From: Candidatus Heimdallarchaeota archaeon
GTDB taxonomy: Archaea; Asgardarchaeota; Heimdallarchaeia; Heimdallarchaeales; Heimdallarchaeaceae
Reading direction: 5' to 3'
Length of the DNA: 64,000 nucleotides
Assembly (NCBI GenBank): GCA_030603365.1
Contig: JAUVXV010000001.1
Location: 64,001-128,000, forward strand
Part shown: one piece after another, positions 60,573 to 63,988 of the stretch
How positions within the stretch are numbered: position 1 is the first letter of the stretch
How the letters are laid out: every line of letters starts with the position of its first letter
Translations under genes and position numbers: made by a program
Notes under the pieces: generated by a model
Database searches by the model: none
Seen by the model: the letters and a program-made list of their open reading frames with translations, nothing else
Told to the model about the DNA's origin: nothing

Positions 60573-61658
60573 ATGGGTGGAATACGAAGACAAAGAAAGA
60601 AAATTATGACTCCTGGTCATCCTTATGATAAAATTCGTATTGATCAGGAATTACCTTTAGTTGGAGAATACGGTTTAAGAAACAAAAAAGAACTGTGGAA
60701 AGCAAGAACTGTTCTATCTAAGGCTAGACAACAAGCTCGTGCTTTACTTGCACTTCCAGCAGATGTGAGAAAGCAACGAGAAAACGAATTACTATTTCGT
60801 TTAGCTAATCTTGGTGTGCTTCCTCCAGGTAGCGACCTTGACTCTGTTCTAGCGCTAGAGGTTCGTACTGTGTTGAATAGACGACTGCAAACCATAGTGT
60901 TTAGAAAAGGGCTCGCAAGTTCGCCTTATCAAGCAAGACAGTTTATTGCGCATAGACATATTGCTATTGAAAGAGCTGTTGTTACCTCTCCAGGACGTCT
61001 TATTAAAATCAATGAAGAAGAAAATATTGACTATGCTCCCCTATCTCCTATGCTAGAGAAATCACATCCTGCTAGACCTCAAGCACCTCCTGTTAGTGAT
61101 GAAGTGCCTCTTGAGAAGAAGGAAGTTCCTAAGAAGGAAGCTCCTAAACCCGAAGTTAAACCAGCTAAACCTGTTCCTAAGAAGGAAGTTGAAGCTCCTA
61201 AACCCGAAGTTAAACCAGCTAAACCTGTTCCTAAGAAAGAAGCTCCTAAACCTGAAGTTAAACCAGGCAAACCTGTTCCTAAGAAAGAAGCTCCTAAACC
61301 TGAAGTTAAACCAGGCAAACCTGTTCCTAAGAAGGAAGTTGAAGCTCCTAAACCTGAAGTTAAACCAGCTAAACCTGTTCCTAAGAAGGAAGTTGAAGCT
61401 CCTAAACCCGAAGTTAAAGCTGAACCTAAACCTCCAGCTAAACCTAAGGTTTCCAAAGTGGATGTTTCTGAAATAAAAGGCGTTGGAGCTAAAACTGCTA
61501 TGCTTTTGAAAGAGAATGGTTTTGATACTGTTAATAAAATTGCTTCTTCTTCTGACGAAGCTTTATCTAAAGTTCCAGGCATCGGTCCTGCTACTGCTAA
61601 AGCTATGATTAGTGAAGCAAAGAACATTCTGACCAAAGCTAAGGAGAAATCCAAGTAG
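60573..61658 (+). CDS. rps4: 30S ribosomal protein S4 fused to Pro/Lys repeat linker and C-terminal HhH domain
   Basis: [29 protein letters not shown]; C-terminal IKGVG.KTA...VPGIG.ATA. Confidence 0.95.
61125..61418 (+). repeat. 48/54-bp coding tandem repeat x~6 (VPKKE[VE]APKPEVKP[A/G]KP) in rps4
   Basis: Near-identical nucleotide units. Confidence 0.95.
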
Positions 61659-61666
61659 GTGATTGT

Positions 61667-62341
61667 ATGAGTGAAGAAAAAGCTAAAACTAAACAAGAAG
61701 AAAAGAAGGAAGCAAAGCCGGATAAGAAGTCAGATAAGAAGTCAGATAAGAAAGCTGACGCTAAAGAAGACAAGAAAACTGACGCTAAAGAAGACAAGAA
61801 AACTGACGCTAAAGAAGACAAGAAAACTGATACTAAAGAAGACAAGAAAACTGACGCTAAAGAAGACAAGAAAACTGAAGCTAAAGAGGAAACAAAGCCA
61901 GAAACAACAAGAGAAGATTCTAGAAGATCAGAAGCAAGATCTCGAACCTCTAGAAGAGACTCTAAATATGGTGTCGCTCACATCTTTTCCAGTTACAACG
62001 ATACAATCGTTCATATCACCGATATCTCAGGCGCAGAAACATTCAGCCGTAAAAGCGGAGGAATGTTTGTGAAAGCTGACAGAAATGAGTCCAGCCCATA
62101 CGCAGCAATGAAAGCAGCAAACGCAGCAGCAATGGAAGCACAAAGTAAAGGAGTGTACCAACTGTATGTGAGATATAGGGCACCAGGAGGACATAAAAAT
62201 AGAACTCCAGGACCAGGAACACAAGCAGCACTAAGAGCACTGAAAAGATCAGGAATGAGAATACTAAGACTAGAAGACGTGACCCCACTTCCTCATGATG
62301 GGTGTAGGAGGAAGGGGGGCAGACGTGGTCGTCGAATGTAA
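61667..62341 (+). CDS. rps11: 30S ribosomal protein S11 with charged-repeat N-terminal extension
   Basis: [48 protein letters not shown]. Confidence 0.96.
61721..61887 (+). repeat. 12-bp (DKKS) and 24-bp (DAKEDKKT x5) coding tandem repeats in rps11
   Basis: GATAAGAAGTCA and GACGCTAAAGAAGACAAGAAAACT units. Confidence 0.95.
62283..62319. promoter_or_regulatory. Predicted zinc-finger binding/target site within rps11 3' end (inverted pair GAGGAAG(T/G)GGGG, 13-bp spacer)
   Basis: Minus strand 62283-62306 = TAC ACC CAT CAT GAG GAA GTG GGG matches decoded helices of the two downstream C2H2 proteins; plus strand 62308-62319 = GAG GAA GGG GGG. Confidence 0.7.
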
Positions 62342-62342
62342 T

Positions 62343-62380
62343 CTCTCCTTTTTTATTTCTTTTTTCATTTTCATTTTTGT
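62343..62380 (+). terminator. Archaeal oligo-T terminator after rps11
   Basis: Several T4-T7 runs directly after the stop codon. Confidence 0.6.
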
Positions 62381-62429
62381 ATTATTTGAGTTTATAATCT
62401 AATTTCTGTATTGAATGAATGAATATTAG

Positions 62430-62816
62430 ATGAATAGTGATTCAGAAACCATATTACATGTCTGTGACATTTGTCAGAAATCTTTCAAGCGGAGATATTA
62501 CTTGAATAGGCACATTGATGCTGTACATGAAAATCAAAAGGTTTTTAGATGCTCATATTGTAATTTTCAGACTTCAAGGAAAGATGCTTTGGATAGACAT
62601 GTTAATCAAATCCATATAACAAGCAGAGTTCATAAATGCAAAAAATGCGGGGAAACATTCAAGCAAATAGGAAATCTCTATAGACACACCAATACTGTGC
62701 ATACAACTGAAAAGAGATTTCAATGTAAAGACTGTTTTTCTTCTTTCTCAAGAAAAGATAATCTAGAGAGACACATAAAGAAATTTCACACATCAACCAT
62801 ATCAGAGGAATATTGA
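62430..62816 (+). CDS. 4x C2H2 zinc-finger protein, no effector domain
   Basis: Four C-x2-C-x12-H-x4-H fingers; helices RRYYLNR, RKDALDR, QIGNLYR, RKDNLER. Confidence 0.93.
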   Translation: MNSDSETILHVCDICQKSFKRRYYLNRHIDAVHENQKVFRCSYCNFQTSRKDALDRHVNQIHITSRVHKCKKCGETFKQIGNLYRHTNTVHTTEKRFQCKDCFSSFSRKDNLERHIKKFHTSTISEEY

Positions 62817-63988
62817 GTATGAGCTCCTCTACGAAATCTAGTTTTGAATGTGAAATTTGTGGAAAAATACTCTCGAGAAAAGATTTACTTACACGTCATA
62901 TTAAGTCTGTACATCAAAAAATTAAATATCCATGTCCTGAATGCTCCTATGTTGCTAACAGACAAGATTATCTAAAACGTCATATGAATGAAGTGCATCT
63001 TAACCTTCGTTCTTATGTTTGTGAGTTCTGTGGGATGAAGTTTAATCAATCTGGAACTATGAACAGACATATAACAACAGTTCATAAGAAAGAGAGAAAT
63101 TATAACTGCCCTGAATGTGAACCTGTTTTTTCTCGTAAGGATCAGCTTCAAAGACACATAAGAGCTGTCCATCTAAATCTTCGACCTTATATCTGTAAAG
63201 AGTGCGGTGCCTCCTTTAAGTTACCCAACCATTTGAAGCAACATCACATATCTATCCACACTAACCAACGTAAATATGTCTGTGAGGAATGTGGTTTTGC
63301 ATTTAAGTTATCACAGCATCTTAACGATCATATCAAGGTTGTTCATCAAAATCATCGTCCTTACGTGTGTGAAGAATGTGATGCTTCTTTTCCCCATGCT
63401 CGTAATCTTAAGTTACACATCATTGCTGTGCATACTGATGAGAAACCTTACGTTTGTGAAGATTGTGGTAGAGGTTTTGCTGATCCTAGTCATTTATATA
63501 AGCATAAACAAGCTGAAGCTTGTTGGTTTACAACTACTACTGCTTACAAATGGGAGGAACTCTGTAAAGAGATAGCAGAGGTTTTACTAGCTGATGAAGA
63601 TTGGAAGTGGAAACCTAAGATAGACACTCCTGAGCTAAAGAAACAGAGCTGGATTCAGCCTGAAATAATTGTATACTACGAAAATAATACGAAAAGAATC
63701 ATTGATGCTAAGAGATCTACTCAAGCGATATTCAAGGAGAAGGATCTGGTAGTATATCCAAAAGTGGCTGAGAAAGTGGAGTTCTGGTGCCTCTATGGTA
63801 AAACTGAGGGAATGTTTGATGAAAAGGAGGAGATGGAGGCTAAGGGTAGTGAGGAGATTATTGCAGAGTTGAAGAAAAGGAAGAATAAAAGGAATAAGAA
63901 TTTGATTGGCAATCTGATAATGAAGGTTGAGATGCTAAAGAAAGGATTAGAATTCAAAGGACAGAGATTACTTATTGATTCTTCCTAA
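62813..63988 (+). CDS. 8x C2H2 zinc-finger array fused to PD-(D/E)xK-like nuclease domain (natural ZFN candidate)
   Basis: Seven C2H2 + one C2HC fingers with canonical-type linkers (TDEKPY, NLRPY); C-terminal KWEELCKEI...IQPEIIV...IIDAKRS; start overlaps upstream stop (TTGA). Confidence 0.85.
   Translation: MSMSSSTKSSFECEICGKILSRKDLLTRHIKSVHQKIKYPCPECSYVANRQDYLKRHMNEVHLNLRSYVCEFCGMKFNQSGTMNRHITTVHKKERNYNCPECEPVFSRKDQLQRHIRAVHLNLRPYICKECGASFKLPNHLKQHHISIHTNQRKYVCEECGFAFKLSQHLNDHIKVVHQNHRPYVCEECDASFPHARNLKLHIIAVHTDEKPYVCEDCGRGFADPSHLYKHKQAEACWFTTTTAYKWEELCKEIAEVLLADEDWKWKPKIDTPELKKQSWIQPEIIVYYENNTKRIIDAKRSTQAIFKEKDLVVYPKVAEKVEFWCLYGKTEGMFDEKEEMEAKGSEEIIAELKKRKNKRNKNLIGNLIMKVEMLKKGLEFKGQRLLIDSS

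Follow-up and report, generated by a model that had tools for sequence, protein, structure and literature searches.

A candidate zinc-finger homing nuclease in a heimdallarchaeon and a nuclease-free companion that tracks the resident rps11 allele

Introduction

In the window, by which we mean the whole 64-kb stretch of heimdallarchaeal DNA analysed here, the ribosomal protein genes rps13, rps4 and rps11 are followed by two zinc-finger genes. The first encodes a small array of four fingers (hereafter the companion), the second an eight-finger protein with a nuclease domain. No class of DNA-binding domain in animals is larger than that of the tandem C2H2 arrays; to our knowledge, they are nearly absent from prokaryotes. 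An earlier note on this DNA proposed that the two proteins form a pair resembling a restriction-modification (R-M) system, in which a DNA-binding protein replaces the methylase. The locus raises the question of what a nuclease-free binder does next to a nuclease whose predicted site contains its own.

Results and discussion

The cassette downstream of rps11

A pattern search of the genome containing the window (G000, 3.65 Mb) returned the two zinc-finger genes as its sole multi-finger open reading frames (ORFs). The features of the locus are collected in Table 1. The last 20 or so codons of rps11 appear to contain both the recognition site and the break point, and the TATA-like motif (TTTATAA, 62391–62397) in the following intergenic region was conserved and common to cassettes with and without a companion. 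Upstream, rps4 (60573–61658) contains an extended Pro/Lys/Glu repeat and, at its C-terminus, a helix-hairpin-helix domain; rps11 begins with a Lys/Glu/Asp repeat extension (61667–61950) of very variable length across the genus. The gene rpoD is not the downstream neighbour of rps11.

Table 1 Features of the rps11 locus in window coordinates
Feature	Position	Strand	Basis
rps11 (uS11), target gene	61667..62341	+	Translation; family search in 61 genomes; PF00411 in related loci
Predicted 12-bp site of the companion, GAG GAA GTG GGG	62283..62294	-	Sequence; sole 11/11 site in the window
Predicted 24-bp site of the nuclease, codons T-P-L-P-H-D-G-C-R	62283..62306	-	14/15 contacts at −1 and 6
Putative break/insertion point, 5–6 bp beyond finger 8	62311..62313	.	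Deduced from the longest displaced rps11 remnants
Replacement 3′ end of rps11	62312..62341	+	Genome-wide profile scan
T-rich terminator-like stretch, then TATA-like motif (putative function)	62342..62429	+	Alignment of 33 intergenic regions
Companion, four C2H2 fingers, effector domain absent; candidate shield	62430..62816	+	Translation, Pfam
Eight-finger nuclease (7 C2H2 + 1 C2HC) with C-terminal PD-(D/E)XK domain	62819..63988	+	Motifs, model, fold matches
Near-copy (11/12) of the companion site, inverted	62308..62319	+	Sequence scan

In each close homologue for which the locus extends far enough, the nuclease gene lies directly downstream of rps11. We detected the cassette in 19 of the 24 other genomes of the genus, with empty sites in G003 and G018; it was not found in the six other genomes of the family, and no relatives were found in viral contigs. 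At the empty site of G018 (L023), the rps11 end is near-identical to that of the occupied locus L011, and the cassette has probably been lost there while a resistant allele was kept. Companions were gathered from rps11 loci, which gave 17 distinct pairs of companion and allele and 32 of nuclease and allele; a word-index homologue search with the companion sequence gave no matches. The nuclease of L009/L041 contains a stop codon next to an odd rps11 end (T-P-L-T-H-D-V-C...K-C-G-I). This may be a decayed copy, the result of repair scars or an assembly error. L009/L041 was excluded from the residue-base tallies, the dN/dS and trend counts and the count of low-specificity residues.

The companion and its predicted site

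As the earlier note had described, the companion ORF encodes four fingers with the helices RRYYLNR, RKDALDR, QIGNLYR and RKDNLER. The protein comprises 128 aa including an 8-residue tail and matched PF00096 in four stretches (E 2e-21). Its C-x2-C-x12-H-x3-5-H repeats and short linkers fit the classical tandem C2H2 array (Kruppel/TFIIIA type), and the use of positions −1, 3 and 6 for base reading is supported by residue-base covariation. Across the 17 companion loci, C-terminal tails measured 0–9 residues, and an effector or interaction domain was absent. The site assigned by the same note, GAGGAAGTGGGG on the minus strand (62294 to 62283), covers the rps11 codons T-P-L-P-H and lies 136 nt before the companion ATG. 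It matched the finger code at 11/11 positions and, when both strands were scanned, proved to be the only such match in the window, two other sites scoring 10/11. The exact 12-mer occurs in 2 copies in the 3.65-Mb genome, the other copy lying within an ABC-transporter ORF. In 17/17 companion loci, the predicted rps11 site was the top-ranked one for the companion.

The companion site falls entirely within that of the nuclease. Each finger triplet consists of the first base of the next codon, the wobble base and the second base on the template strand, the middle bases being the wobble positions of the Pro, Leu, Pro and Thr codons. In this register, helix positions −1 and 6 therefore face invariant bases, while position 3 faces the wobble base. 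The inverted near-copy of the companion site lies at a distance of 13 bp and spans the presumed cut point. It occurs only in the window and L080 and is missing in L008, L032 and L033, which belong to the same companion clade. We consider this near-copy probably incidental, and its interpretation as a dimer arrangement resembling that of zinc-finger nucleases (ZFNs) was dropped for want of conservation.

A C-terminal PD-(D/E)XK domain in the eight-finger protein

The nuclease gene encodes eight fingers and a 150-residue tail, with the nuclease domain at 63518–63988. Its ATG at 62819, located 2 nt past the companion stop and 9 nt after a GAGGA motif, is a likelier start than the TTG at 62813; the deposited protein begins there and has 389 aa. 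The 4-nt gene overlap claimed earlier would need the TTG, whereas the tight coupling of the two genes holds for either start. The motif residues E246, P281-E282 and D296-A-K298 (counted from ATG 62819) correspond to the E, P-E and D-A-K that are invariant in 17 close homologues. In 48 distant homologues, E, P and K were conserved to at least 90%, many of these proteins having P-D. No Pfam family covers the nuclease domain. A model of the domain based on 48 sequences reached a pLDDT of 90.4; an earlier model from a shallow alignment (pLDDT 50.9) was not used. The best fold match was AF1548 (Z 8.1, rmsd 3.2 over 109 residues), further matches including Can2, Can1, McrC, Card1, many type II enzymes and also R2 endonuclease domains. 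The Z values are middling, yet nearly the whole list has the restriction-endonuclease-like fold. With the core fold recovered in the model and the catalytic motif conserved among the homologues, we assign the tail to the PD-(D/E)XK nuclease superfamily, and catalytic activity would be expected.

Fingers 1–4 (F1–F4) of the nuclease and the four fingers of the companion have the same residues at −1 (R/R/Q/R), and both sets have R at 6. At position 3 the two proteins differ (L, Y, T, Q in the nuclease vs Y, A, N, N in the companion), in agreement with the parallel drawn previously. Tallies of residues and bases in 31 nucleases gave Arg-G in 93/93, Leu-T in 62/62 and Asp-C in 30/30 cases at −1. 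When loci were scanned using −1 and 6 alone, the rps11 site was the best in the locus in 29/32 cases and tied in 3/32; since the tables for −1 and 6 were drawn up with the data in view, this agreement represents a consistency check rather than a blind prediction.

The companion tracks the resident allele

At position 3, the simple finger code pairs H/K/R with G, N with A, A with T, S/T/V with a pyrimidine and D/E with C. Exceptions to this code exist (PMC4330361). Under the textbook code, position 3 of the companion fitted the resident wobble base in 74/74 scorable fingers from 17 loci. For F1–F4, 65 fits compared with a mean of 22.2 in 20,000 host shuffles (maximum 49). Collapsing the data to 11 haplotypes left 43 fits against 15.1 expected, a value as high being reached in 0/100,000 shuffles, and with one member from each of the five companion clades, the true pairing was the best among all 120 permutations (1/120). 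To be independent of the position-3 code, we added a leave-one-finger-out test that uses no code, in which the mapping from four fingers predicts the fifth. Again, 74/74 companion fingers were predicted correctly, and the mapping was alike in every finger (N-A, H/K-G, S/A-pyrimidine). The covariation between position-3 residues and host wobble bases that the earlier note had put forward as a check was thus borne out with and without the code. A chance match of the companion to its site is excluded by the shuffles, the clade permutations and the leave-one-finger-out test.

The correspondence extended to finer detail. At position 6, companion F2 carries Arg wherever the host uses a CTN Leu codon (12/12) and Asn, Lys or Ser wherever it uses TTR (5/5). 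Five base-class changes within clades were each paired with a change of the companion residue, 0 being discordant: L032/33 vs the window type (F4), L035 vs L078 (F2 and F4), L081 vs L004/L083 (F1), and L004 vs L083 (F5). Linkage explains an association at the level of lineages, but not one externally known mapping in five different fingers. Companion genes showed a dN of 0.18 and a dS of 1.76, with a dN of only 0.03 at −1 and 6 and invariant zinc ligands, indicating purifying selection; a dN/dS of about 0.10 also excludes the companion as a decayed duplicate. A single origin of the companions was not rejected (AU p = 0.18). Sequence comparison strongly demonstrates allele tracking by the companion, which appears to have been selected to bind the resident allele over exactly half of the nuclease site.

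The nuclease is predicted to avoid its own allele

For the window nuclease, the misfits to the resident allele were those already listed in the earlier note (F7 Asn vs C, F3 Thr vs A, F1 Leu vs G). Across loci, F1–F4 of the nucleases fitted their own allele in only 13/95 scorable fingers, compared with 36.1 expected (20,000 shuffles, minimum 19). Restricting the analysis to one nuclease per lineage gave 5 fits vs 9.3 expected (p = 0.027), indicating that self-avoidance, once kinship is removed, is weaker than companion tracking and points in the same direction. On average, 22% of other alleles fit a given nuclease worse than its own allele does. Many nucleases fit the alleles of other occupied hosts; the L013/L083 type, for instance, fits the CTC alleles of L007, L010 and L012. 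For the resident allele of the window, nucleases of the L004, L011, L078 and L086 types are predicted to fit.

A separate companion was absent from 15/31 cassettes with intact nuclease motifs. Some of these are close relatives of companion-bearing cassettes and have a similar nuclease on an allele that is identical or nearly so (L013/L086 vs L081/L083; L082 vs L012), so the companion is dispensable. Primary self-immunity would thus arise from allele mismatch, with the companion as an optional extra layer. In P0008, a nine-finger nuclease (L088:770-2041) has the first finger of the companion fused to the nuclease. It apparently goes back to a deletion that joined two homologous finger repeats, and a companion can be lost in this way. 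These distributions do not support a strict R-M-like pair. Discrimination of self from non-self through synonymous alleles agrees with both tracking by the companion and avoidance by the nuclease; the part that lacks support is the obligatory antidote.

Displaced rps11 ends and exchange of modules

G000 retains an older rps11 end at C1:130647-130675, 4.3 kb downstream and beyond the end of the window, and a second, decayed one at C1:133717-133745, 7.4 kb downstream. A genome-wide profile scan recovered the resident end and these two displaced ends, and no others. Over the last 24 nt, the displaced remnant and the resident end were identical at 16/24 positions. Both displaced ends precede a T-rich stretch, and unrelated cargo genes lie between them. 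We interpret the two ends as traces of successive insertions. Displaced ends were also present in about ten other loci, where they start at or after a Lys codon, and the longest remnants (G000, L002, L010 and L081) begin within this codon, corresponding to 62312–62313 of the window. This is where the C-terminal nuclease domain would be expected to cut, a line of evidence independent of the recognition code.

Phylogenetic analysis separated the two halves of the nuclease. F5–F8 and the nuclease domain follow the EF-2 host tree. When recognition codons were masked, by contrast, the trees of nuclease F1–F4 and of the companion proved incompatible with three host clades (AU p ≤ 1e-4; ≤ 7e-4). Because of the masking, convergence is an unlikely cause of the conflict. 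The wobble bases of the four target codons were 71% identical within the same finger lineage across host clades, and 20% identical within the same clade between different lineages; upstream rps11 codons, taken as a reference, gave 70–95% identity. The tree conflict and the wobble identities thus show that the allele, the companion and fingers 1–4 have been exchanged as a module between occupied loci.

A model for the companion and its alternatives

In the model that we propose, the cassette would be a selfish homing element whose nuclease recognises a 24-bp run of conserved rps11 codons and cleaves the DNA a few bases beyond, and repair from the donor would copy in the donor rps11 end together with the cassette. 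The wobble-reading residues of the nuclease, tuned to other alleles and missing their own, would provide the main self-immunity. The companion would represent a nuclease-free paralogue of fingers 1–4(5) whose specificity has been readjusted to an exact match with the resident allele. By binding the half-site it would exclude the nuclease of its own cassette, whose fit to all invariant bases is retained, the enzymes of rival cassettes, or both. Since the 3′ end of rps11 is replaced and exchanged between hosts, rival nucleases are a second possible target of the shield; they would include the resident nuclease of a recipient when an allele, companion and fingers 1–4 enter an occupied locus. DNA binding, cutting, expression and protection, as well as which nuclease is blocked, are what we infer from these patterns. 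We regard shielding of the resident site by occupancy as probable. On the wider proposition of a sequence-programmed, stand-alone shield whose individual fingers co-evolve with synonymous codons of an essential gene and which guards that allele in a contest among zinc-finger homing nucleases directed at one another's alleles, our judgement is evenly divided.

Three comparisons among related loci, uncorrected for kinship, bear on the target of the shield: with a companion, predicted self-mismatches were fewer (2.75 vs 3.4, p = 0.036), CTN hosts commoner (11/16 vs 4/15, p = 0.032) and low-specificity residues commoner (22/64 vs 11/60, p = 0.066). These trends weakly favour some self-shielding, and the window nuclease, with one clear predicted self-mismatch in F1–F4, is the extreme case. 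According to a rough count, companion-bearing alleles were only slightly more exposed to foreign nucleases, which does not establish the variant in which the companion defends against rivals. The overlap of the companion and nuclease sites is expected from common finger ancestry anyway.

The companion might instead be a regulator, acting either as a roadblock or attenuator at the rps11 end that curbs read-through into the nuclease from the strongly expressed ribosomal protein operon, or by tuning the promoter of the cassette. A resident allele serving as operator predicts the same tracking and purifying selection, the companion is the first gene of the cassette, its dispensability suits a fine-tuning role, and DNA-binding autorepression is known for homing endonucleases, as in the I-TevI operator (PMC2988022). 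The site, however, precedes the TATA-like box by about 100 bp and is situated within the rps11 coding region, before the terminator-like stretch, and no good promoter site was found: the best intergenic score, relative to a deduced promoter position, was 6–8 of 11–15 in 17/17 loci. A roadblock at the rps11 end would hamper rps11 too, and whereas a regulator site would be free to drift, five of five clades hold the exact register of the nuclease. We consider such a regulator unlikely. To a strict toxin/antidote pair, in which the nuclease cuts the host rps11 unless the companion is present and the pair is addictive, we give little credence. Tight gene coupling with the companion first would suit it, as would the window nuclease, which combines its single clear F1–F4 self-mismatch with three low-specificity residues in a lineage that always bears a companion. 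Yet almost half of the intact-looking nucleases (15/31) do without one, within three lineages it was lost on alleles that are identical or nearly so, one companion was fused to its nuclease by deletion (L088), and nucleases already avoid their own allele.

Equally slender are the chances that the companion aids homing in another way, for instance by marking the donor template or clearing the nuclease after repair, or that it is a finger set captured from rival nucleases and kept only briefly. It does travel with the allele between host clades, and its single origin was neither established nor rejected by the AU test. An effector or interaction domain that could serve another homing function is, however, lacking in its short tails, the high dS and low dN within clades speak for long retention under selection, and its residues change in step with the allele, unlike those of a passive relic. 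Very improbable, finally, is a heterodimer partner or specificity subunit needed for cutting. The adjacent, coupled genes and the inverted near-copy across the presumed cut in the window genome and L080 would be in line with this idea. The companion, however, fits the allele that is not to be cut, overlaps the nuclease site on the same strand, and has neither a nuclease nor a dimerisation domain; half of the cassettes do without it, and the inverted site is not shared by the rest of its clade (L008, L032, L033). Occupancy of the resident site remains our preferred reading.

Related nuclease-domain proteins

The same nuclease domain was encountered in other contexts. L072:811-1968 (G012:C175) encodes an eight-finger protein with canonical TGEKP linkers, convergent with a ferredoxin-like gene. 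Its best predicted site is the conserved cysteine motif of this adjacent gene, with the codons C-L-E-C-A-T-C-R (14/18, next 12). Finger 4 is predicted to prefer a Gly codon as in L071, where a remnant of an L072-type element is present; the host has Ala, i.e., a mismatch. L072 possibly represents a second zinc-finger homing family, and the ferredoxin locus in G012 supports, as one example, the general idea. More distant multi-finger fusions to the domain were found in L068 (G071), L069 (G086), P0036, P0037, P0041, P0043 and P0058, originating from other Asgard families and metagenomes. In L074:385-1956 (G000 C3), L073, L075 and L077, the nuclease domain is joined to a different repeated Cys-containing N-terminal module; one of these fusions (L074) thus resides in the genome of the window itself.

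Comparison with known systems

Judged by the features that can be tested on sequences, the cassette behaves as mORF or free-standing homing elements do, and its binding architecture is new. Elements of the mORF type are known from fungal mitochondria, i.e., atp6 of Allomyces macrogynus and atp6, atp9, cox2 and nad3 of Glomus (PMC3630166). There, too, an endonuclease gene brings a foreign 3′ end that restores the host gene in frame, and the native end is displaced downstream. In contrast, our cassette is situated on an archaeal chromosome in a ribosomal protein gene, combines a C2H2 array with PD-(D/E)XK instead of being LAGLIDADG or GIY-YIG, and is carried by nearly all members of the genus, which swap specificity modules. 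An allele-matched companion is not described in PMC3630166. The Seg and Mob nucleases of T4-like phages (intronless homing, marker exclusion; PMC2988022) are likewise intergenic, cut the rival allele of a neighbouring conserved gene and spread with co-conversion (PMC2988022). In the autorepression of I-TevI, it is the nuclease itself that acts at an operator in the promoter (PMC2988022), whereas the companions lack a promoter site. Unlike Seg and Mob, the cassette has a different nuclease family and binding domain, a target readable finger by finger, a presumed cut some 120 bp away from the first gene of the cassette, and a separate nuclease-free binder.

Type II R-M systems and their C proteins combine a PD-(D/E)XK fold with an adjacent gene of the same site specificity, and the companion could similarly give self-protection. 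The differences are that a methyltransferase is absent, that there is a single 24-bp target with self and non-self distinguished by synonymous alleles, and that the companion fits the self allele rather than the preferred sequence of the nuclease and is dispensable. None of the loci examined has a methyltransferase or another modifying gene in the interval from rps11 to the nuclease, and the companion consists of C2H2 fingers only. Two defining features of R-M systems, the modifying enzyme and an antidote obligatory with an intact nuclease, are thus wanting (15/31 without companion), and a site at the promoter, typical of an operator-type autorepressor such as a C protein, was found in none of the 17 loci.

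Engineered ZFNs resemble the nuclease in joining a C2H2 array to a C-terminal nuclease that cuts a few bases past the array. The cassette enzyme, however, is natural and evolved, has one eight-finger array instead of a designed pair, and its cutting domain is not FokI (fold match Z 5.9 only). The accessible part of one preprint describes allele sequestration by dCas, likewise a catalytically empty binder on one allele (bioRxiv 10.64898/2026.06.03.729891). Archaeal Tn7-like elements are, according to the accessible part of another, Asgard mobile elements with C2H2 arrays for target choice on TniQ; a companion is not described in that part (bioRxiv 10.1101/2025.07.27.667033). Different from Tn7-like elements and R2, the cassette has no transposase, TnsC or reverse transcriptase. 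In the literature searched, with subscription journals mostly outside its coverage, we found no paper that describes the cassette, a comparable natural nuclease with a C2H2 array or an allele-matched shield. As far as the accessible text of the preprint goes, the nearest report is that of C2H2 arrays on Asgard Tn7 TniQ (bioRxiv 10.1101/2025.07.27.667033).

Conclusions

C2H2 arrays that follow the textbook code in an Asgard archaeon, within what would be a selfish element, make the target, the nuclease and the binder all readable from sequence. The nuclease would be a natural counterpart of engineered ZFNs with a compact non-FokI cutting domain, and the companion is a candidate for self-protection by site occupancy instead of methylation, for which no natural precedent was found in the literature searched. 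With sharp predictions for 17 binder-allele and 32 nuclease-allele pairs, a synonymous-codon arms race is directly testable. The cassette also offers a concrete lead on a wider question, namely whether mobile elements gave rise to poly-zinc-finger proteins around the time when eukaryotes originated. If shielding is true, the companion would represent a new kind of nuclease immunity.
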